Shown here: positions 1 to 8,791 of the stretch, piece by piece
Position numbering within the stretch: position 1 is the first letter of the stretch
Layout of the letters: each line of letters begins with the position of its first letter
Virus record (IMG/VR): IMGVR_UViG_2740892488_000005
Coordinates: 1 to 8,791 of that record
DNA length: 8,791 nt
Direction: 5' to 3' (one strand)
Origin: a virus
Taxonomy: Duplodnaviria; Heunggongvirae; Uroviricota; Caudoviricetes
Notes under the pieces: model-generated
Database searches by the model: none
What the model was told of the DNA's origin: nothing
What the model saw: only the letters and a program-made list of their open reading frames with translations
Program-made: the position numbers and the translations under genes

Positions 1-46
1 ACTTGTGATAAATCCGAATGGTTTGGTCGCCGTTCGGGGTAACTGG

Positions 47-68
47 CCCGCCTTGTGCGGGTCTTTTT
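47..68 (+). terminator. Putative rho-independent terminator ending an upstream off-window transcript
   Basis: Hairpin CCCGC (47-51) / loop CTTGT / GCGGG (57-61) followed directly by TCTTTTT (62-68). A TAA at 40-42 could be the stop of a gene entering from the left. Confidence 0.45.
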
Positions 69-127
69 GCTATCTAAAGGGTGCCGGTTACGTTTCCGGC
101 GTCGTTATGTTTCCATTACGACCGTAC

Positions 128-200
128 AGGGCTGGTCAGGCCCGGGCTGGTCTTTCCTGTTTTGAGCTGGTCAGGCTCATGGTCAACGCTGGTCAGGCGT
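128..200 (-). repeat. Tandem array of three stem-loops with conserved 7-nt loop (TGGTCAG on plus, CUGACCA if transcribed leftward) and covarying 4-5 bp stems
   Basis: Loops at 133-139, 168-174 and 190-196. Stems GGGC/GCCC (129-132/140-143), TGAGC/GCTCA (163-167/175-179), ACGC/GCGT (186-189/197-200). Same element occurs inverted at 2191-2205 and 4615-4631. Confidence 0.6.
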
Positions 201-291
201 GGTACTTCCTCCGGTCTTTCCCTGGTGTCACGCTGCGGGTTTGGCCTCTCCTGTTGGGGACTCAGGCACAGCGATAAAACCTGGCTGTGTG

Positions 292-319
292 AAAAAATGG
301 CCCATCGTGCGGACTGGGC
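292..319 (-). terminator. Possible intrinsic terminator on the minus strand
   Basis: On the minus strand GCCCA / 10-nt loop / TGGGC (plus 300-304 pairs with 315-319), then C and a T6 run (plus A-run 292-297). Stem is short, so tentative. Confidence 0.3.
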
Positions 320-764
320 AAAGACTAAACACAGCAAATTGATGATGGGCGCCGGAATCGAACCGGGTAACGGGCAGGGAGTTCCCGTTAAACACCTGTT
401 CACCACAACCGGGAGCGCACTCCGCCATTTCAAAATTTAACGACAAAGCTCAAAGTTGAGTCGATGAAGTGCGCTCTCGTGTTGTAGCCAGGACTCTTCC
501 CTGGTGGTCACACCGTATCGCCTTGATGGTGAATCAATCGCTCATACCTGGCTGTGGCTTGCACATTCCGGCTACCTGCTATGGAGACAACGCGTTAAGG
601 CTCCGCTTCCATCCAGACCGCTTCGACACATGTGCCATATGCCGGTGAAGTCTTTCCCTCTGTCACCGTGTTGGCGCCGACGCGCAAAATTTGGTGCCGT
701 CTTTCCGGCTGTCAGAACGTGTTTCTGAACAACTGCCGCTGGGTAAGCGTTGTTGATGAAAGTG

Positions 765-820
765 ACTTTACAATTTGTATTTGTAATGGTCAATGTGTTT
801 TTAAAAAATAATTTGTAGTG
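765..820. promoter_or_regulatory. OL-like operator cluster downstream of the repressor gene
   Basis: AT-rich block with TTTGTA at 774-779, 780-785 and 812-817; palindrome TACAA-T-TTGTA at 769-779; 9-mer ATTTGTAAT (779-787) also present at 1372-1380 in the repressor/cro intergenic region. Confidence 0.4.
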
Positions 821-911
821 AGGGGCAAAAAAATATTCACTGTGTAAAGGTGTTTTTGTGTTAGGGGAAAGTTGCATGCCAGCAGCGGCTGGCCTGGAAA
901 TTTGAACTGAA

Positions 912-1304
912 CTATTTTGTCTGGTTTTTGGCTTCAAGTAGTTCTTTTAGCAGTAGATCGAAGTGCTCTCTTTTTTCTTTTAGCTCATTGATTAATTTAT
1001 TTTTTTCGCTCTCAGGCAGTCCTCTGAATAGTTGCAGTAGAGCCTGTTCTTGCGGGGTTAGTTCTTGATTGTAATTACCCGGGTGTAGTGTGGATTCATC
1101 CAAATATTCCCCTTCATTCATGAAGAAAAAATGAACAGGGTATCCGGTCACTTTTGCTAGCTTGTCTAATTTATCTTTTCTTGGAGTTACCCCATTACAC
1201 CATGCCTGAACTGATTGAGCCGTAACCCCAATATGGCGAGCTAACTCAGATTGAGACCAGCCTAAGTCTTTTAGAATCCGTTGTAGTCGGCTAGCAAAAG
1301 CCAT
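912..1304 (-). CDS. Prophage CI-like repressor, XRE-family HTH, 130 aa, with no LexA-like S24 peptidase domain
   Basis: ORF 912..1304 (-). N-terminal HTH signature (LGWSQSELARHIGVTAQSVQAW) and helical C-terminus; divergent from a cro-like gene across an operator-rich intergenic region. No Shine-Dalgarno within about 15 nt upstream of the ATG, so possibly a short-leader or leaderless mRNA. Confidence 0.8.
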   Translation of the reverse strand: MAFASRLQRILKDLGWSQSELARHIGVTAQSVQAWCNGVTPRKDKLDKLAKVTGYPVHFFFMNEGEYLDESTLHPGNYNQELTPQEQALLQLFRGLPESEKNKLINELKEKREHFDLLLKELLEAKNQTK

Positions 1305-1424
1305 GTTTTTCGTTTTTTGTGTTCATACCGTAAGGATACAAGGTTTAATTGTAGGGAGCATTGCAAATATAATTTGTAATTACAGTTATTGTTTGTAATG
1401 ATGACGCGGACACAAGGAGTCCAT
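1305..1424. promoter_or_regulatory. Divergent promoter/operator region between repressor and cro-like gene (OR-like)
   Basis: AT-rich 120 bp intergenic region with perfect 10-bp palindrome TGTAATTACA (1375-1384), further TTTGTA copies at 1373-1378 and 1392-1397, a TTGCAA -35-like hexamer at 1361-1366, and AAGGAG SD at 1414-1419. Confidence 0.55.
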
Positions 1425-1655
1425 ATGGATAAACAACTGCAAGACAAAATTCTTTCCGTAATGAGTCAATCCGAGTTAGGGCGGCGATTAGGGAAAAAAC
1501 CACAAACGGTAAGCCTCTGGTTCAAAGGACGGGTTCCCGGTGAAGAGGTTTTGCGCACATCTGAAGCTCTTGAATGGCGCGTGACCCCTCATGATCTTAG
1601 ACCGGATCTTTACCCAAACCCAGATGACAGCTTGCCTAAAACGGAAGCAGCTTAA
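1425..1655 (+). CDS. Cro/YdaS-like HTH regulator, 76 aa
   Basis: ATG at 1425 preceded by AAGGAG (1414-1419). The track ORF starts at 1389 but that ATG lies inside the operator repeats with no SD. HTH (SQSELGRRLGKKPQTVSLWF) and the C-terminal HDLRPDLY motif typical of Cro/YdaS-type prophage proteins. Confidence 0.75.
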   Translation: MDKQLQDKILSVMSQSELGRRLGKKPQTVSLWFKGRVPGEEVLRTSEALEWRVTPHDLRPDLYPNPDDSLPKTEAA

Positions 1656-1713
1656 CTGTTGGTGAGCCCCAAATCTGATTAAGCGTAATCAATTTTTAGC
1701 GACAGGAGACGCT

Positions 1714-2190
1714 ATGGAAAACCAAGAGGAATTACAAAAAGAGATTTTGACCTGGGCGGCAAGGGCAGGGCAGGAACTCGTCACGATTGAAATCTGCCGG
1801 GCCTGGTTCAGTCAGGGACGCAATGATGAGTTGAGACTACATGAATTTGAGGACGCGGACGGCAACGTGGACTGGAGAGCCATCAACAACAATCGGCAGA
1901 AAATCTTTCGCTGGTTACGTGGCGAGACAACGGCGGCGCGCCGAAAAACTCAGGTGCTGGCCAGTGTGATGAAAGCCGTGCTACCCGCAGAACGGCGGGC
2001 ACGTCTGGAGTCGCCGGGCGATCCCGTTTTGCTGGCAACGCTGGCGGCAAAAGAAGGGGTGGAAGCGATTAACGCTGTACATCTCCACTTCGCGCCAGAG
2101 TTAACTATTCAGGAAATTGACGAAGCAATAGCGGCGCTGGTAGCGACGCGAGGAGCAGTGATACGCACTGCGCAAGACCACCATGCATGA
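1714..2190 (+). CDS. YdaT-like (CII-analog) prophage regulator, 158 aa
   Basis: ORF 1714..2190 with AGGAG at 1703-1707. Contains the motif NNRQKIFRWLRGETTAARRK, which I recognise from Rac-prophage YdaT-family proteins; sits immediately after the Cro/YdaS-like gene as in Rac-type immunity regions. Confidence 0.65.
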   Translation: MENQEELQKEILTWAARAGQELVTIEICRAWFSQGRNDELRLHEFEDADGNVDWRAINNNRQKIFRWLRGETTAARRKTQVLASVMKAVLPAERRARLESPGDPVLLATLAAKEGVEAINAVHLHFAPELTIQEIDEAIAALVATRGAVIRTAQDHHA

Positions 2191-2229
2191 GCGCCTGACC
2201 AGCGTTTAACTTATACCGAGGAAAGACCG
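2190..2229 (+). promoter_or_regulatory. Stem-loop plus conserved SD leader cassette (copy A)
   Basis: Directly after the TGA at 2188-2190: stem GCGC/GCGT (2191-2194/2202-2205) with loop CTGACCA (2195-2201), 9-nt spacer, then ACCGAGGAAAGACC (2215-2228) and ATG at 2230. Same architecture at 4615-4651. Confidence 0.55.
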
Positions 2230-2388
2230 ATGTTAAGACATATTGACCGCATTACCTGGCGTAACGGCTGGCACCTGAATGGACGCCCGGCACATGTTGC
2301 AGAGATCCGCCCCATATTCGATGGCCGCGTCGCAGCTGCACGTTCTGTATGGGAAAAGTACGAAGAAGAAAAAAGCGAAACTGCGTGA
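2230..2388 (+). CDS. Hypothetical small protein, 52 aa (below the ORF-track size cutoff)
   Basis: ATG 2230 to TGA 2386-2388, translating MLRHIDRITWRNGWHLNGRPAHVAEIRPIFDGRVAARSVWEKYEEEKSETA. Supported by the strong SD (GAGGA) and by the identical 14-nt leader that precedes the 136-aa gene at 4652. Confidence 0.45.
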   Translation: MLRHIDRITWRNGWHLNGRPAHVAEIRPIFDGRVAAARSVWEKYEEEKSETA

Positions 2389-2451
2389 GCAAAATCTCTC
2401 TGGCGCTGCCTATGAGGCTGGCTGTCGCGTTCTCTCAGAGGCTTTGGGCAT

Positions 2452-3042
2452 ATGAACATCCTCCCGTTACTTGATAGACCCATAGCCTTCCAGAGAAGTT
2501 TTATCCGTCTTGAAATGGGCGTGACTGCCGCATTGTTTCTGTCGCAGTTGACGTACTGGACAAACAGAACAACTGACGACGGCTGGGTATATAAAACCCA
2601 GGATGAGTGGGAAGAGGAAACAGGGCTTTCACGATACGAGCAGGAGGGCGCGCGCAAAAAACTACGTGGTCTCGGCGTCTTGCTGGAACGTAAACAGGGC
2701 TTGCCTGCCAGGCTGTACTACAAAATCGATAATGATGTGTTGTGCCAGCTACTTACGTCCGCATACAAGGATGCGGAAAAACCACATACAGGTGAGGGGA
2801 AAACCACCAGGCCTGTACGTGGAAAACCAACAAACATTCTTACAGAGAATACTACAGAGATTATTACTGATGGTGAATCGGCTGACGCCGACACCCAACA
2901 ACCTGCCGACCAGAGAATAAATTATCAGGTGATACTCGATACCTATCACGAGATTTTGCCAGAGATGCCACCAGTGAAAATCCTCACTGACGGCAGAAAA
3001 AAAACACCTTCGCACTTTCTGGAAAAAATTCAATTTCAATGA
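2452..3042 (+). CDS. Phage replication initiation protein (replisome-organiser type, winged-helix N-terminal domain); reading frame probably disrupted near its 3' end
   Basis: ORF 2452..3042 (196 aa); N-terminal region resembles phage O-like/DnaD-like initiator winged-helix domains and lies directly upstream of a DnaB-family helicase. An adjacent frame stays open from 2978 to 3208 and ends overlapping the helicase start, suggesting a +1 frame change at A8 (2997-3004) or A6 (3023-3028). Confidence 0.6.
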   Translation: MNILPLLDRPIAFQRSFIRLEMGVTAALFLSQLTYWTNRTTDDGWVYKTQDEWEEETGLSRYEQEGARKKLRGLGVLLERKQGLPARLYYKIDNDVLCQLLTSAYKDAEKPHTGEGKTTRPVRGKPTNILTENTTEIITDGESADADTQQPADQRINYQVILDTYHEILPEMPPVKILTDGRKKTPSHFLEKIQFQ

Positions 3043-3197
3043 GTCCCGTTGGCGGGCCTATCTGGAATTTATCGGTGGCAATTGTCGCTGGATGCTGGAG
3101 GACAGGCCAAATGGCAGGGGAGGATTCTGGCGGCGTAAAAATCTTGATTATCTGATTACCGAACGCTGCTATGTTTCGGTCAAGGAAGAACGCGCAA

Positions 3198-4613
3198 ATG
3201 ATAAATAACGCGATTGCACTGTACAGCGTTGACGCAGAACAGGCTGTTCTGGGCTGTCTGATGCTGAATACCGACCACGACAGAACCAATGCGGTATTTG
3301 CGTTACTGAAACCGGAAACGTTTTATATCAATGCGCATCAGGTTATCTACCGGGAGATCAAAGGATTATTTCAAGCTGATAAACCAACTGACCTGATAAC
3401 ACTGACCGAACTGATGGAATCGAAGGGGCTGTATGAGCGCGTGGGGGGATTCGCATACCTGGCTGAAATGAGTAAGGCGGCGATTCCGGCCTCAATGGTC
3501 AACTACGCGAAAATTGTACGTGAAAAAGCCATTCTTCGTTATGCCGTGGAAAAGTTGAATTCTTGTCTGGAGATTATGATCCAGCCTGCAGATATGACTG
3601 CTACTGACAGGATCACCGCCGTTCAGCAAGTGATTGGGCAGGTGGCCGAACATTCCCGTACCGGGCATAAGGGCGGTTTGCGTCCGGCAAGTGAAGTCGT
3701 CGATGACTGGATAGATGACCTTGAGCGCCGTTTCAATGATCCAGCACATGCAGCCGGACTAACGCTCGGAATCGAAAGCCTTGATCGCTTAATGGCACCA
3801 AAGCAGGCGTTAAGAGGTTCATTGGTCGTTATTGGTGCCCGGCCAAAAATGGGCAAGACAGCCGCGTTTAATAAAATTGCGGTGCATTTTGCTCTGAATC
3901 ATCGTTTGCCGACGCTGGTATTTAGCCTGGAAATGACTGACAGAAGTCTCATTGAACGCATGGTTGCGCAGGAAGCAAAGGTCAATTCGGAGATTTTTTA
4001 TCTTGGCCCTAACGATGAATCTGAATTGAGTCTCGCAATAGCAAAGGCGGGGGAGATTGCCGAATCCAACATGATGATTGACAGCACGGCAGGTGTAACC
4101 CTTGCGCATATTGTCGCTGAATGTCGAAAAGTTAAACGGATGCGTGGCTCGGTTGGCCTGGTGGCAATTGACTATTTGACGCTGATGAAGACCGAATCGG
4201 CAGAGCGTAGGGATATTGCGTATGGCGATATCACAACCGGTTTGAAGAACCTGGCAAAAGAGCTGGATTGTGTTGTGGTCCTGCTGACGCAACTCAACCG
4301 AAAGCTTGAAGAACGTGCCGATAAGCGGCCTAACCCGAGCGACAGTAAAGATACCGGGCAGATCGAACAAGATTGCGATGTCTGGATTGGCCTCTATCGT
4401 GATGCTGTTTATAACGAAAATGCCGACCCAAATCTCATGGAAATGTTGCTACGTCTGAACCGCGAAGGACCATCGGGAACAGCCTATGCCCTGATGAAAA
4501 ATGGCTCAGTTATTGATATCAGCGATGAGGAGGTTTATCGCCTTACCAACGACCGCTCAGAAAAAAATAAACGTTATTCCCGTAGCGATAATTCTCGCAC
4601 AAATGAATTTTAA
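3198..4613 (+). CDS. DnaB-family replicative DNA helicase (phage-encoded, P22 gp12-like)
   Basis: Track ORF 3171..4613; preferred start is ATG 3198 with AAGGAAG SD at 3183-3189. DnaB N-terminal motif (SVDAEQAVLGCLML), Walker A (GARPKMGKTA), SLEM motif, and LTQLNRKLEERADKRPNPSDSKDTGQIEQDCDVWIGLYRD matching the DnaB H3/H4 region. Confidence 0.9.
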   Translation: MINNAIALYSVDAEQAVLGCLMLNTDHDRTNAVFALLKPETFYINAHQVIYREIKGLFQADKPTDLITLTELMESKGLYERVGGFAYLAEMSKAAIPASMVNYAKIVREKAILRYAVEKLNSCLEIMIQPADMTATDRITAVQQVIGQVAEHSRTGHKGGLRPASEVVDDWIDDLERRFNDPAHAAGLTLGIESLDRLMAPKQALRGSLVVIGARPKMGKTAAFNKIAVHFALNHRLPTLVFSLEMTDRSLIERMVAQEAKVNSEIFYLGPNDESELSLAIAKAGEIAESNMMIDSTAGVTLAHIVAECRKVKRMRGSVGLVAIDYLTLMKTESAERRDIAYGDITTGLKNLAKELDCVVVLLTQLNRKLEERADKRPNPSDSKDTGQIEQDCDVWIGLYRDAVYNENADPNLMEMLLRLNREGPSGTAYALMKNGSVIDISDEEVYRLTNDRSEKNKRYSRSDNSRTNEF

Positions 4614-4614
4614 C

Positions 4615-4651
4615 CACGCCTGACCAGCGTGAAATAACCGAGGAAAGACCA
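4615..4651 (+). promoter_or_regulatory. Stem-loop plus conserved SD leader cassette (copy B)
   Basis: Directly after the helicase TAA (4611-4613): stem CACGC/GCGTG (4615-4619/4627-4631) with loop CTGACCA (4620-4626), 5-nt spacer, then ACCGAGGAAAGACC (4637-4650) and ATG at 4652. Confidence 0.55.
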
Positions 4652-5062
4652 ATGACCACCACTCCAGGCAAATTAGAGTACCCGTCGGACAAAGGACACA
4701 TAGACGACGGTAAAAACTATCTCGACGTCATTTTGTGGAATATGAACGTCGGGCCACGTGCGCGCACTCGCGCGGTTTTTGTGCCAAGACCTAAAGCAGG
4801 CAATTTTTCAACCCCTGCTAAGCCTGCCCGTCAGGCATCCGTAGCCGCAGCGCCAGCAGTGAAACGTAAGGGCAAAACGCACACCGGGATCGCGATTCGC
4901 AGAAATGGTGAGCGGCAAGTGAAACTCCACGAAACAGCGACAACCTGGTGTGCCTCACCGCATGAAACTTACGACAAGATAACCGGGCAGCGCATTGGCG
5001 CGCCTGGTCGCTGCCGCCTGCTGCTGAGTTCCATCACTCCGATAGCAAAGAAAGGGGCGTGA
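4652..5062 (+). CDS. Hypothetical protein, 136 aa
   Basis: ORF 4652..5062 with the conserved SD leader; enterobacterial-style codon usage (CTG, GCG, CCG rich); no competing ORF on either strand. No family recognised. Confidence 0.6.
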   Translation: MTTTPGKLEYPSDKGHIDDGKNYLDVILWNMNVGPRARTRAVFVPRPKAGNFSTPAKPARQASVAAAPAVKRKGKTHTGIAIRRNGERQVKLHETATTWCASPHETYDKITGQRIGAPGRCRLLLSSITPIAKKGA

Positions 5063-5063
5063 T

Positions 5064-5300
5064 ATGGCCGGGCAATCAGATTACCTGCCGCCCGGCTTAC
5101 CACACAACCGCGCCAAATGGCCCCAGGAATACCAGCTTAAAGAGCACTACGACATGCGAGCGGCGGCGCTGATCCGCCAACTCTTTGAGAAACGTATTCC
5201 GAGGGGAAGCGTGATTGAGCAAATCGGAATGACGCCAGATACGTACCGGGAATTTTTCAGAGAGCGTCTGAACTACTGGAGAGGGGTGATGGAACAATGA
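5064..5300 (+). CDS. Hypothetical protein, 78 aa
   Basis: ORF 5064..5300, starting 1 nt after the previous stop; purine-rich AAAGGGG upstream. Its stop overlaps the next start in an ATGA arrangement. Confidence 0.55.
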   Translation: MAGQSDYLPPGLPHNRAKWPQEYQLKEHYDMRAAALIRQLFEKRIPRGSVIEQIGMTPDTYREFFRERLNYWRGVMEQ

Positions 5301-5608
5301 AATACAAACGGTGGGTGCGTGCGGAAGTCGTAATCATCAAACAATGTGCGGGCAGCATGACAGTTGAACGTATAGGGCAGCTTATTGGCAGAACCGGTGC
5401 AGCGGTACGCACAAAAGCGCGCGAGCTGAAAATCTGTATGTATCTGCGGGGTAATTATCACCAGTCAGTGAAATACCTCCAGGAAGATATCGAGCTGGCA
5501 AGGGAATTACATCAGTCGGGTATTAATCGCCAGGATATCGCAGAAAAACTCGAAATGCCGATCGGAGCGGTGAATCAGTTTGTTTATTTTGAGCGGAGAA
5601 TTTCATGA
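5297..5608 (+). CDS. Hypothetical DNA-binding protein with two HTH-like segments, 103 aa
   Basis: ORF 5297..5608; ATGA overlap with the upstream gene. Two helix-turn-helix-like stretches (MTVERIGQLIGRTGAAVRTKAREL and INRQDIAEKLEMPIGAVNQFV); the HTH assignment is inferred from sequence pattern only. Confidence 0.5.
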   Translation: MKYKRWVRAEVVIIKQCAGSMTVERIGQLIGRTGAAVRTKARELKICMYLRGNYHQSVKYLQEDIELARELHQSGINRQDIAEKLEMPIGAVNQFVYFERRIS

Positions 5609-5829
5609 AAGAACTTTTTCTTGCATTTGTGCCCCGGTTTATTAATGACCAGATCGCACTGACTGATAATGGTGAACAATATGAAATTGCCTGCAGCATG
5701 GTGGATGTGAATCCTGGCGAACGGTATGACGCGATGTGTGACCTGAAAATATTTACCTGGCTGGGTTGGGCTATTCCGTGTGGAGAACCAACCAATATTC
5801 GTCCGTTTGAGAGCAGGGAGGCTGTATGA
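5605..5829 (+). CDS. Hypothetical protein, 74 aa
   Basis: ORF 5605..5829; ATGA overlap with the upstream stop, part of the coupled small-gene chain. Confidence 0.5.
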   Translation: MKELFLAFVPRFINDQIALTDNGEQYEIACSMVDVNPGERYDAMCDLKIFTWLGWAIPCGEPTNIRPFESREAV

Positions 5830-5942
5830 GTGAATTGAAAATACGTCGCAAGGCAATAGCACGCGTTAAAAATCTATTACCAGTGCCTGTCAAATATCGT
5901 TTTTGTGGTGGGAATGTACGGATTGGTACGGATGTATGGTGA
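5826..5942 (+). CDS. Possible small ORF, 38 aa
   Basis: ATG 5826 overlapping the upstream stop (ATGA), stop TGA at 5940-5942, translating MSELKIRRKAIARVKNLLPVPVKYRFCGGNVRIGTDVW. Only positional evidence. Confidence 0.3.
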   Translation: MSELKIRRKAIARVKNLLPVPVKYRFCGGNVRIGTDVW

Positions 5943-6016
5943 TTGCGGAGTGACGTAAAACGAATCGTTGTGGGTGTAATATCGTCAATATCATTGGTTT
6001 CCCGGAGGGAAAGGAC

Positions 6017-6238
6017 ATGTTTGGCGATAAACTGGAGTTACCACGGAACGGGCGGATAGTGCTCTATATTTCAGATTACAAAGTAACCCGGGCTGAGGTG
6101 TTGGAACCGGAAAAACATCTGGTCACGTTACCGGACATTATTGAGTTGTATAAGCGGGTCGGATATGTGGACTTGCATCGCGATGATGTTCCCGTTGAGT
6201 GTATGGAATGTGAACACCGGAGGTTTGAAGTTGATTGA
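6017..6238 (+). CDS. Hypothetical protein, 73 aa
   Basis: ORF 6017..6238 preceded by GGAGGGAAAGG; followed about 90 nt downstream by a terminator-like hairpin plus T7. Confidence 0.5.
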   Translation: MFGDKLELPRNGRIVLYISDYKVTRAEVLEPEKHLVTLPDIIELYKRVGYVDLHRDDVPVECMECEHRRFEVD

Positions 6239-6329
6239 ATTGACTTAGAAAAAGTCCGGGGCTATAGTTTCCGCGCAGCCGCAAAATCGGTTGCCGGGAT
6301 TGGCGTCCCGGATATCTAAGTGACGCATA

Positions 6330-6349
6330 GCCGCGTTAGCGGTTTTTTT
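6330..6349 (+). terminator. Putative intrinsic terminator closing the small-gene operon
   Basis: GCCGC (6330-6334) / loop GTTA / GCGG (6339-6342) followed by T7 (6343-6349). Short stem, moderate confidence. Confidence 0.45.
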
Positions 6350-6448
6350 ATGTGTTAGGCACGGCCACATTCGCATTATGGTGGGCTGTGTGGGGGCTTC
6401 TGTGGAAGCGCCGGGTTCACTTAGCCGGTTACGCCAACCCTGCACAGC

Positions 6449-6481
6449 TCACCACCAGATGATTGGCGTCGCTGGTGGTGA
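6449..6481. promoter_or_regulatory. Perfect 10-bp inverted repeat immediately upstream of the antirepressor start
   Basis: TCACCACCAG (6449-6458), 13-nt spacer ATGATTGGCGTCG, CTGGTGGTGA (6472-6481); right arm contains the Chi octamer GCTGGTGG (6471-6478). Antirepressor SD AAGTGAGG at 6495-6502 and ATG at 6511. Confidence 0.4.
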
Positions 6482-6510
6482 TGAAAAAAACACTAAGTGA
6501 GGCCACTGCG

Positions 6511-7300
6511 ATGACAGTCCAAATATCTGCGGAATCCCTTTCTCCGCTACATCATAACCAACTTCCCGTCATCACTACTGAATTGCTTGCCAGTTTGTAT
6601 GGCACGGAAGTAAATGGTATCCAGCAAAACTTCAAGCGCAACATCGCCAGATTTGTCGTAGGAAAGCATTTTTTTTAAGCTGGAAGGTAATGAATTACGC
6701 GACTTCAAAAACAGACTGACAGATAGTCAGTCAGTTGCTAAACATACCCGATCCCTCATTCTCTGGACAGAACGCGGCGCAGCTCGCCATGCCAAAATGC
6801 TGGAAACAGAACAGGCCTGGGAAGTTTTCGAAAAGCTGGAAGATTGTTATTTTAGCCAGCGTCCAGAGAGGCGGAGTACAACTACCGATGACCGTACTCC
6901 CTTGCGTGATGCCGTTAATATACTGGTCGGCAAGAAAGGCATGATGTATCCCGATGCCTACACCATGATTCATCAACGCTTCGCCGTCTCTCACATAGAA
7001 CAACTGTCACAGACGCAAATGTTAGAGGCGATTGAATACATCCACTGCCTGCTACTCGATGAAAATCACCCAACCATTCCAGATTTTTCTTTTATCACCA
7101 CTATCAAAAATGGAAAAGTGACCGGGATGCGCCATGTTGCCAAAGGCGAACATCTGATGACCTTTGACGCTTTCAAAGAGATCGCTGAGCGGGCAGGGTA
7201 TCTGGTGATCCACAGCGACAATCTGCGAAGTATGACACTGGATAAATTGATGGTAATGGGGAAAAAGTCGGCTATATCCGTTGCTAATTCAGCATTTTGA
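6511..7300 (+). pseudogene. Phage antirepressor-type regulatory protein, interrupted by a frameshift in a T8 run
   Basis: N-terminal part in frame 1 (6511-6678, ends GKHFF-stop) and C-terminal part in frame 2 (track ORF 6797..7300, open from 6677). Removing one T from T8 (6669-6676) gives a continuous ~262-aa protein with the conserved stretch GKHFFKLEGNELRDFKN...SLILWTERGAARHAKMLETEQAWEVFEKLEDCYF, which I recognise as antirepressor-like. Confidence 0.65.
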
Positions 7301-7427
7301 CAGGTTGTTTGGGGCGGAAATACTCTATTTGCGCTTAAAAAGGTATTTGACCACGACCAGCACGAGACCGAATACCTCTGTCAAAGTACCGCCCATATAA
7401 AACAGTTACATATGCACTTGATGACTA

Positions 7428-7459
7428 AGCTGGCACCAGGTTAACACCTGGCGCCAGCT
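7428..7459. other. Strong near-perfect hairpin between convergent genes (14-bp stem, one mismatch, 4-nt loop)
   Basis: AGCTGGCACCAGGT (7428-7441) / TAAC / ACCTGGCGCCAGCT (7446-7459). No U-tract on either strand, so not a canonical intrinsic terminator. Confidence 0.4.
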
Positions 7460-7589
7460 TGAAGGAGACTTCAGTTATTGGTTTCTGAGGAAAGCGATTC
7501 TTGAAAGGGTCATTTGCGTCTGGCAGTCGACCATTTTCTTGACTTCAGCATCTGTTCCCTGCATTGAAACTTTACCGCACATAGCATCC

Positions 7590-8294
7590 TTAGTTTTGAT
7601 CCACTGACGCTGAGAAGGCAGCAAATCTTTTTTTCTTCGCCGGGGTTAACTTGCTCCAGACGGTACTCAAATCAGAGTCGGCATTCGCAAATGCCATTCG
7701 GGACTGATCAAGGTTGTCAGCTTTTTGCGGCTGAAGTTGTGCCTGTCTCTCTATTTGCTTCTCCGCCTCATACTTAGCCTGTTCTTGCGCCCTGAGTTGC
7801 ACCTGTTGTTCCGCTTCAATTTGACTCTGTTGGGCATCCTTAGCCTGCTGGATTTTCTGCTGCTCAACGATCGGGGTGATAATGGAAAGCGATGTCAGTA
7901 AAGCGGCGCCCACTGATATCGGATTATCAGTAGAGGTTTTTACAAAAACGTTTTTCTGATCGTCGGTCGCCTGCACGGTGTAGGTGATACGTTTTGAAAA
8001 GGCGTTTGCGTTGTTCTCCAAAAACAGGCTTTCCATTTGCTTATCGAGATTACGATTAAAATTCTTTCTGTAAGCATCTGAAAGCTGGACGTACTCGTTC
8101 GCAGATAGAGTCATCGTCACGGTCCCTTCACAAGTTTTCATTGTGCTGCCCGTGTCACTTGATGTTGTGGAGATCTCAGAGATGGCTAGTTTGATCTTGT
8201 CCAGTGTGCTTCGTTTGGTCTGATTAGTGACATCAGGGTATTTATCGACCTGTTCAGAGAGTCCTTCATAAGCAGATTTTTTTAATAAATCCAT
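7590..8294 (-). CDS. Hypothetical protein, 234 aa: N-terminal domain, central hydrophobic helix, Gln/Glu-rich coiled-coil C-terminal region
   Basis: ORF 7590..8294 (-). Hydrophobic stretch ISVGAALLTSLSIITPIV followed by a heptad-like Q/E/A-rich segment. Frame stays open upstream of the ATG until a stop at plus 8358-8360, inside the IS end, so the native 5' end or promoter may have been displaced by the IS insertion. Confidence 0.55.
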   Translation of the reverse strand: MDLLKKSAYEGLSEQVDKYPDVTNQTKRSTLDKIKLAISEISTTSSDTGSTMKTCEGTVTMTLSANEYVQLSDAYRKNFNRNLDKQMESLFLENNANAFSKRITYTVQATDDQKNVFVKTSTDNPISVGAALLTSLSIITPIVEQQKIQQAKDAQQSQIEAEQQVQLRAQEQAKYEAEKQIERQAQLQPQKADNLDQSRMAFANADSDLSTVWSKLTPAKKKRFAAFSASVDQN

Positions 8295-8420
8295 GAGAGC
8301 TGACTGGGTTATTTCCGAAGAACAACCGATCTCATCTTTTTTGTTATCTGAAGTGGTTTACTGAATTTGGCCACCTGAACAGAGGTGATATGCTCACCTC
8401 AGAACAACACAGGTGCCATA

Positions 8421-8721
8421 ATGAAAAAAAGAAATTTCAGCGCAGAGTTTAAACGCGAATCCGCTCAACTGGTCGTTGACCAGAATTACACCGTGGCAGA
8501 TGCAGCCAGCGCTATGGATGTCGGCCTTTCCACAATGACGCGATGGGTGAAACAATTACGTGATGAGCGGCAGGGAAAACACCAAAAGCCTCCCCTATTA
8601 CCCCGGAACAAATTGAAATCCGTGAGCTCAGGAAAAAGCTACAACGTATTGAAATGGAAAATGAAATATTAAAAAGGCTACCGCGCTCTTGATGTCAGAC
8701 TCCCTGAACAGTTCTCGATAA
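8421..8721 (+). pseudogene. IS3-family transposase OrfA (HTH plus leucine-zipper regulator), apparently frameshifted twice
   Basis: [53 protein letters not shown] in frame 3 (from 8421); expected continuation [27 protein letters not shown] in frame 2 from 8597; expected C-terminus [14 protein letters not shown] in frame 1 ending at TAA 8719-8721. Frame changes coincide with an A4 run (8576-8579) and the A5G slippery-site region (8671-8676). Confidence 0.65.
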
Positions 8722-8791
8722 TCGGGAAACTCAGGGCGCGTTATCCTGTGGCCACTCTCTGCCATGTGTTCGGGGTCCATCGCAGCAGCTA
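8676..8791 (+). CDS. IS3-family transposase OrfB, N-terminal part (3' end beyond the window)
   Basis: Frame 3 open from 8676 to the window end with a typical OrfB N-terminus ([16 protein letters not shown]). Confidence 0.6.

Follow-up and report, generated by a model that had tools for sequence, protein, structure and literature searches.

The non-coding segment at positions 292 to 367 of the DNA stretch analysed here (a virus of the Caudoviricetes, IMG/VR record IMGVR_UViG_2740892488_000005, positions 1 to 8,791; hereafter the window, 8,791 nucleotides (nt) in length) forms the 3′ third of a minus-strand cassette (486..292) that is probably a dicF-locus non-coding RNA, with a small RNA (sRNA) that mimics processed RprA. 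Its sequence features suggest that, besides giving rise to an sRNA of the Hfq-binding, RNase E-processed type, the cassette most likely also serves as a leaky terminator for the early-left operon. The cassette is located in the ~850-nt untranslated leader of that operon, in a prophage integrated at leuZ. A cassette of this kind, at the dicF position and with an RprAproc-like sRNA, is unannotated in RefSeq, and no description of one was found in the literature searched. An earlier note on this segment, made from the letters of the window, had pointed to a transfer RNA (tRNA) T-arm-like motif followed by a terminator-like hairpin. Both are present. The T-loop-like motif GGTTCGATTCC is found at 354-364 on the minus strand (367..351 reads CCCGGTTCGATTCCGGC) with a 4-base-pair (bp) stem CCGG/CCGG, a 7-nt loop TTCGATT and then GCCCATC, and in the hairpin G319-A315 pairs with U304-C300, followed by CA and T6 at 297-292. 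Of the two explanations offered in that note, the end of a small structured RNA has held up, since the T-arm look-alike is one helix of a covarying three-way junction and the hairpin with its T6 is the terminator of an sRNA module of the DicF/RprA type. The stretch of about 25 nt that the note gives between motif and hairpin contains the most conserved part of the whole segment, a 16-nt seed.

Positions 288-337 of the minus strand show 84% identity in blastn to the final 50 nt of rprA as found in 5424 of 5426 E. coli genomes, a similarity that the earlier note had overlooked. The similarity begins at AUUGCUG, which is the 5′ end of RprAproc, and covers the 3′ seed (15 of 16 positions) and the terminator of RprA. 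RprAproc comprises the last 47 nt of RprA, coexists with the full-length RNA and is active alone (PMC9262595), and RprA is known to be cleaved by RNase E (PMC6202311). The Rfam model for RprA (RF00034) aligns to 399..290 with 36.2 bits (E 0.019). Posterior probabilities are high in the 3′ half alone, the fit of the model's 5′ two thirds is poor, and the central region of RprA that pairs with rpoS, csgD and hdeD has no counterpart in the window. A sister variant (L033), which likewise carries the T-arm look-alike, reaches 61.9 bits (E 7e-8); two loop bases and an additional C set it apart from RprAproc. The window element shares with RprA the terminator arms (GCCCA...UGGGC) and the overall layout of three hairpins with a single-stranded seed. 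In contrast, the true rprA gene is situated between ydiK and ydiL and is controlled by Rcs or Cpx, whereas the window element lies in a prophage and is presumably controlled by the phage repressor.

The seed also occurs in front of other terminators. Searches with the 16-mer recovered more than 120 viral contigs, with 105 unique instances in IMG/VR, and nearly all of these instances have a GC-rich hairpin and a U run directly 3′ of the seed. Dozens of different hairpins occur at this place, some short and RprA-like, others long and DicF-like. Combinations of the seed with a non-RprA hairpin were found in 22 species-representative contigs, mostly from Enterobacterales (12 genera); two others, a Chryseobacterium and a Bacillota metagenome-assembled genome, are tentative matches. 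Loci fetched independently of the seed, by the upstream sequence GGCGGAGTGCGCTCCC alone, gave the same picture: the 16-mer was present in 34 of 37 homologous loci, where five unrelated terminators follow it, and the remaining three are without the module altogether. In a homologous phage region the seed AAUUGCUGUGUGUAGUCUU is retained while the terminator has been swapped for the hairpin GCCCGGGcgcCCCGGGC followed by U7. Because the unpaired 16-mer stays invariant while the adjacent terminator is freely replaced, it bears the signature of a base-pairing seed.

The position of the cassette connects it to dicF. Strain SK1144 carries a Qin-like prophage with the gene order ydfC, dicF, dicB, ydfD and exonuclease, in which dicF is preceded by AACGCGAAAGCGCACGG..UGUCGUUAAAUUUU..CCGUGCGCUUCCGGUUGUGG, a sequence with clear homology to window 486..404. 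The window and the Qin dicF locus have the long stem and the AUCAAUUU junction in common, and an exonuclease gene follows downstream in both. The bases AUCAA stand directly 5′ of the DicF sequence in Qin (AUCAA|UUUUCUGGUG) and at the corresponding place in the window (AUCAA|UUUGCUGUGU). Like DicF, the window element belongs to the early operon of a lambdoid-type prophage under control of the immunity repressor, lies upstream of an exonuclease gene, has a homologous long stem upstream and the identical AUCAA|UUU at the sRNA 5′ end, and has an intrinsic terminator at its 3′ end. Several features set the two apart. The window terminator is short and of the RprA type and lacks the long GGCGGUAUCAG...CCGCC hairpin of DicF, the loop of which is implicated in pairing with ftsZ. 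The seed is UGCUGUGUUUAGUCUU in the window and UUUCUGGUGACGUUU in DicF, a tRNA-like junction takes the place of the ~130-nt spacer of Qin, and the surroundings of the window element contain neither ydfABC nor dicB. One relative (L138) combines both types: it has the upstream arm and the seed of the window and continues with GGCGGCAUCAG...CCGCCCC and a U run, and the same bases match both the Rfam model for DicF with 61.6 bits (gathering score 48) and that for RprA with 35.2 bits. The window element is therefore the positional homologue of dicF, with a seed and terminator of the RprA type. The 5′ end of DicF is generated by RNase E; its 3′ end comes from the terminator, giving 53 nt, or from RNase III, giving 72 nt (PMC5069750). 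By analogy, AUCAA|UUU in the window is a putative RNase E cleavage site that would place the 5′ end of the sRNA near 338. As a separate observation, the annotated dicF-like region of phage P1 (L003 690-791) has an RprA-like terminator at its end (GCCCAUCUUCGGGUGGGCG and a U run), and at 3105-3125 of the same locus a DicF-type seed, UUUUCUGGUGAUGAC, follows a conserved leader element just upstream of ban.

The part of the cassette upstream of the linker is structured, and the structure is conserved. In an alignment of ten distinct sequences from three lineages, the four helices (long stem, P1, P2 and T-type hairpin; Table 1) together comprise 33 pairs, with 97% of cells paired and compensatory changes in 13 pairs, whereas only 34-52% of cells paired in a control in which the 3′ partners were shifted by 1 to 3 columns. 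The apical region of the long stem is variable and holds a conserved GUUAAAU. The T-type stem reads CCCGG/CCGGG, UCCGG/CCGGA and CUCGG/CCGAG in the three lineages, and its loop UUCGAYU is invariant. An additional G, giving the form CCCGGTTCGATTCCGGG, is present in 13 of the 14 other viral-contig copies of the window variant and in every copy of the variant among the metagenome hits; this form makes a perfect 5-bp T-type stem. Because the other copies carry one more G, the T-stem of the window has a 1-nt deletion, in its 3′ strand. An alternative P1 proposed by RNAalifold, with GGUG of CAGGUG, is broken in lineage B, and the adjacent GGYG was preferred. A pairing of GCCCAUC (350..344) with GAUGGGC (306..300) is present in the minimum-free-energy fold, but its 5′ partner is missing in lineage B. 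The junction is modular: relatives of type F have the junction without the sRNA, and types C, D and E have the sRNA without the junction. It is an optional module and most probably helps the precursor to fold, to remain stable or to be processed. Four IMG/VR loci of the same family (L058, L076, L131 and L059) have a pair of T-loop-type hairpins within the apical part of the long stem, CUGGUUCGAUUCCAG and CUCGUUCGAUUCGG, both with ACAC after them, and carry the same RprA-type seed downstream.

Table 1. Features of the dicF-position cassette and its leader (window coordinates).
Feature	Position	Strand	Description
PL-like early-left promoter	793..765	-	TTGACC, 17-nt spacer, TAAAGT; the sole sigma-70-like site found in 1-1400
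Structured leader element	475..650	-	~165 nt, upstream of the cassette; ends in hairpin CCAGG-GAAGAGU-CCUGG (504..488)
Long stem	404..486	-	5′ arm 486..467 with 422..404; 18 pairs, 6 with compensatory change, 97% of cells paired
Three-way junction	349..403	-	P1, 10-nt joiner AACAGGUGUU, P2 and T-type hairpin
P1	403-401 with 351-349	-	3 pairs, 0 compensatory; middle pair U-G, U-A or C-G
P2	390-384 with 374-368	-	7 pairs, 5 compensatory; loop ..UCCCUG
T-type hairpin	367-363 with 355-352	-	5 pairs, 2 compensatory
T-arm look-alike	351..367	-	CCCGG-UUCGAUU-CCGG(G); loop fits the tRNA T-loop consensus
Linker	337..346	-	AUCAUCAAUU, AU-rich, single-stranded; contains AUCAA|UUU
Seed	321..336	-	UGCUGUGUUUAGUCUU, 16 nt, predicted single-stranded; 15/16 bases as in RprA and in the prophage consensus UGCUGUGUGUAGUCUU
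Terminator, putative Hfq-binding 3′ end	292..319	-	GCCCAGUCCGCACGAUGGGC, then CA and U6; short hairpin of RprA type, one internal mismatch
Mature sRNA (predicted)	292..338	-	~47 nt, UUUGCUGUGUUUAGUCUUUGCCCAGUCCGCACGAUGGGCCAUUUUUU; by analogy with 53-nt DicF and 47-nt RprAproc (PMC5069750, PMC9262595)

The first 1000 bases of the window have matches in 473 of 5426 complete E. coli genomes, with 416 of the 473 records at least 99% identical, and the RprA-like/dicF-like element itself is carried by 448 of the 5426. At the matching places RefSeq annotates nothing except the end of a helix-turn-helix gene, and the 292-367 region is non-coding. Among the carriers are JJ1886 and SK1144, strains of sequence type 131. 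In SK1144 the window locus is a prophage integrated beside glyW-cysT-leuZ. Its genes run from the integrase over small genes, a Gam-like gene, a gene for a 738-amino-acid (aa) exonuclease and one for a 106-aa protein of unknown function to ~1 kb without annotation (corresponding to window 1-911) and the cI-like helix-turn-helix repressor gene (912-1304, minus strand), beyond which follow a divergent cro-like gene, YdaT, replication, Q, lysis and structural genes. The site lies ~5.6 kb into the prophage as measured from the integrase end. Just downstream of the repressor gene we identified a PL-like promoter. The palindrome TACAATTTGTA, which is probably an operator, overlaps it. The hexamers of this promoter are retained in the diverged, 72%-identical BUCT708 homologue (-35 CATTGAC, -10 TAAAKT; alignment A1), and the transcript predicted to start from it would run leftward across the entire cassette. 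A promoter of the cassette's own in the apical loop, with GUUAAAU as -10, found no support: the promoter scan gave no acceptable -35 or spacing, and by eye the window and Qin have none in common. In lysogens the RNA might instead derive from read-through from the repressor gene, because no other minus-strand terminator was detected downstream of that gene.

These data suggest the following course of events. Lifting or leakiness of the cI-like repressor would allow transcription to start at the PL-like promoter and to proceed leftward through the structured leader, the long stem and the tRNA-like three-way junction. The majority of transcripts would end at the RprA-type terminator (at 292-297), which would in this way also attenuate transcription into the early-left genes. 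Cleavage of the linker by RNase E at AUCAA|UUU would then release an sRNA of ~47 nt with a U-tailed terminator. This sRNA is predicted to bind Hfq and to pair with the targets of RprAproc through its 16-nt seed; pairing with rpoS is not expected, because the part of RprA that pairs with rpoS is absent. Transcripts that read through the terminator would express the 106-aa protein, the exonuclease and the Gam-like protein.

Upstream of the cassette the leader contains a further structured element. It shows 70-77% identity in blastn to phages P1, P7, SJ46, SPN1S, Tyrion and mEp390 and to Klebsiella phages (for instance L003 2930-3109 in P1 and L004 2996-3169 in SPN1S), and in P1, P7 and SJ46 it is found between trnI and ban. 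The conserved blocks are a GGCAYAUGGCACAUGYGYCG hairpin, GGUAGCCGGAAUGUGCAAGCCAG, UUCACCAUCGUGGCGAUACGGUGUGAC and a terminal CCCGG-GAAGAGU-CCGGG hairpin. RNAalifold predicts 33 pairs for the element, 8 of them with compensatory changes (alignment A4), and the terminal hairpin covaries between CCCGG/CCGGG and CCUCG/CGAGG. The element is unannotated and has no match in Rfam; it and the tRNA-like junction are each a candidate for a new phage RNA motif. Another feature of the leader is the motif GGAAAGAC, which occurs four times on the minus strand (starts 706, 657, 221 and 157) and never on the plus strand. Each copy lies in the loop of a short GC hairpin (e.g. GCCG-GAAAGA-CGGC) that is retained in the homologues, and the hairpin at 504..488 is related to these. 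The loops resemble lambda boxB. A boxB-like reading of the GAAAGA and GAAGAGU loops is unsupported, as the first downstream protein is not N-like: it is acidic and belongs to phrog_2479, of unknown function, which rules it out as an N-like antiterminator. No N-like protein is encoded nearby. An antiterminator RNA of the HK022 put type was also rejected, since the leader showed no resemblance to the early region of HK022 in which the put sites lie.

With regard to the tRNA resemblance, the earlier note had considered a 3′ fragment of a tRNA (or tmRNA, transfer-messenger RNA) gene left as the core of an old attachment site, an explanation that now appears barely credible. The loop and its closing pairs do equal the T-arm consensus exactly, and GGTTCGAWTCC occurs once in the 8791-base window (354-364, minus strand) where 0.01 occurrences are expected (200 shuffles). 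ARAGORN, one of the checks proposed in that note, found no tRNA or tmRNA gene at default settings, and Rfam gave none at gathering score; the sole weak tRNA-type match at E<=10 was to tRNA-Sec (16.2 bits, E 4). With the cut-offs lowered to 80-90% of default, ARAGORN draws a poor 'tRNA-Val(aac)' at 420..344, and we rejected this fold since its D and anticodon stems are mismatched and it clashes with the covarying P2 hairpin. The attachment-site version of the fragment explanation is refuted by the prophage ends: the true core is a 125-bp direct repeat consisting of the 3′ half of leuZ, the 3′ trailer and the terminator, and the T-arm segment (344-367) has no second copy at either prophage boundary, where a direct repeat had been suggested as a test. 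Because compensatory substitutions are found in the T-stem of three lineages, its structure is selected rather than decaying, and the T-loop hairpin recurs elsewhere in the same RNA family. The copies of the attachment repeat (L001 14941-15065, L165 ~16700-17230) include the whole 3′ external transcribed spacer of leuZ, and the prophage therefore duplicates this spacer. The leuZ 3′ external transcribed spacer is an sRNA sponge.

A resemblance to tRNA could also mean that the junction is the functional core, a tRNA mimic acting as a decoy for tRNA-targeting host defences or as a handle for TruB, TrmA or RNase P, with the sRNA module as an incidental neighbour. The window-type junction has the 5-bp, G-C-closed stem and the 7-nt loop UUCGAUU of a T-arm, and, as in tRNA-like domains, its T-hairpin stacks by a short helix made with the immediately 3′ strand, while a GG-containing single strand, the joiner, takes the position of the D-loop. 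The invariant loop on covarying stems, the recurrence of T-loop hairpins within the RNA family, and the related ban operon of phage P1, which combines real tRNAs with dicF-like and leader elements, are all in keeping with mimicry. Yet most of the sRNA-bearing loci of the family (types C, D and E) lack the junction, its P1 helix is only 3-4 bp long, and it has no CCA and no acceptor stem of the 7-bp tRNA length. A D-arm is lacking too, the second hairpin loop measures 8-9 nt, the whole is embedded in a messenger RNA leader, and none of the models for tRNA, tmRNA or YrlA (a bacterial Y RNA) matches it. We regard mimicry as the core function as very improbable. A more serious competitor, although still rather unlikely, is that the segment acts purely in cis, as a leader terminator or attenuator in which the 16-mer and the structures serve termination, antitermination or processing and no trans-acting sRNA is made. 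The terminator at 292-319 is the only minus-strand terminator-like site that the pattern scan detected in 1-1400 (stem 314..300 by scan, 319..300 by eye), and so the sole one between the repressor gene and the early-left genes; it lies within a long and strongly conserved structured leader with repeated GGAAAGAC hairpin loops, and with no gene for an N-like protein in the vicinity, read-through could conceivably be controlled by RNA. However, termination requires no specific unpaired sequence, and it is the unpaired 16-mer that stays constant while terminators are exchanged. In the host sRNA RprA, which acts in trans, this 16-mer makes up the conserved 3′ region; the homologous DicF, produced in just this manner, is proven to act in trans (PMC5069750); and no sequence similarity exists to the early region of HK022 with its put sites. 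Improbable in our view is an action against the host RprA circuit, either as a decoy competing with RprAproc for Hfq or a common partner, or as a sponge formed by the GGAAAGAC-rich leader. Prophage-encoded anti-sRNAs do exist in E. coli (PMC4104026), GGGAAAGACU (658..649, minus strand) is complementary to AGUCUUUGCC of the seed with -24 kcal/mol in RNAduplex for the consensus seed, and the strand bias of GGAAAGAC fits such a role. Against it, seed-complementary k-mers are not enriched over dinucleotide shuffles (7-mers 2 versus 1.5 expected, 6-mers 9 versus 5.8, with 172 of 1000 shuffles at least as high), and pairing of the seed with its own leader as sponge or self-target was rejected for this reason. 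The motifs moreover persist in type F relatives without the sRNA module, and the element has the polarity and sequence of RprA rather than its complement.

Some observations speak against the favoured interpretation as a dicF-locus RNA with an RprAproc-like sRNA. The window copy falls below the thresholds of both Rfam families, with an RprA score of 36.2 against a gathering score of 70 and no match to DicF (RF00039; gathering score 48 bits) at E<=10. Its terminator stem has an internal mismatch and CA precedes the U tract, which makes the strength of termination uncertain. The seed shows a G-to-U change at position 9 and the T-stem has lost a base, so that this particular copy may be slightly degraded. 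The covariation of the junction comes from three lineages only, a metagenome scan having given no further lineage, and a cis-acting role could account for the conservation of the 16-mer. No link between RprA and prophages or between RprA and DicF, and no account of this locus, was found in the literature searched. Finally, no direct target of RprAproc has been established in E. coli (PMC9262595), and the predicted regulon is vague for this reason. Should the model fail, there would still be a well-defined leader terminator and an annotation gap in which both Rfam models score below threshold.

A broader proposal, which we put forward tentatively as a possible but not the expected outcome, is that the RprAproc domain and prophage DicF belong to one exchangeable family of sRNA modules, in which seeds and terminators are swapped at the dicF position of Enterobacterales prophages. 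A widespread class of these modules would carry the exact RprAproc seed, and derepression of the prophage would inject a mimic into the Rcs/RprA network. In some lineages an undescribed D-armless tRNA-like junction would precede the module and govern folding or processing of the precursor. In a narP-lacZ library screen, more than 2-fold repression was obtained only with DicF, RprA and SdsN137; RprAproc is sufficient for a second, unexplained repression of narP and acts on narP +1..+50 without predicted pairing (PMC9262595). The relatedness of the DicF and RprA seeds may be connected with this screen and with the action of RprAproc. If the proposal is correct, the module family would help to explain how RprAproc (and DicF) act on narP. 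If the favoured model of the cassette holds, the natural seed variants at one locus would be ready-made mutants for this question. A prophage present in 448 of 5426 genomes would then encode a copy of the active 3′ domain of a core envelope-stress sRNA, and the state of the phage would be coupled to the RprA regulon. DicF and RprA, which share no Rfam clan, would be linked through intermediates that match both models, with a bearing on the evolution of sRNA seeds and their movement between phage and host. Other Hfq-dependent prophage sRNAs (AgvB/AsxR, Pas, HnrS, Esr41 and IsrK) are similar in being short, ended by a terminator, borne on lambdoid prophages and linked to the core network (for pathogenic E. 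coli: PMC4104026, bioRxiv 10.64898/2026.05.13.724894, PMC13502914). They are antisense or unrelated to core sRNAs, and none has been reported with an RprA seed, whereas the window element copies the seed of a core sRNA. The Pas sRNAs and HnrS also differ in their location in or beside late or lysis regions, unlike the window element at the dicF position.

The window contains some further features outside the cassette. At gathering scores, Rfam identified in the whole window only isrK, C4 and c4-a1b1, all at 6262-6459. There the plus strand carries a tandem array of isrK (80 bits), c4-a1b1 targets (53 bits) and C4 antisense RNA (75 bits), with a gene for an ORF6N-domain protein after it; this is an RNA-controlled antirepressor module of the P1/P7 immI type in the same prophage. 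Window 1-67 shows weak similarity to isrK and isrB. Downstream of the terminator there are three exact copies of GCTGGTCAGGC (GCCUGACCAGC in the minus-strand RNA) at plus coordinates 131-141, 166-176 and 188-198, which are retained in the BUCT708 homologue. Positions 45-68 of the plus strand form a terminator-like hairpin (GGCCCGCCTTGTGCGGGTC, then T5) that points towards the early-left operon; the BUCT708 homologue has kept it in full. This hairpin might mark the end of an antisense RNA over the start of the first early-left gene.

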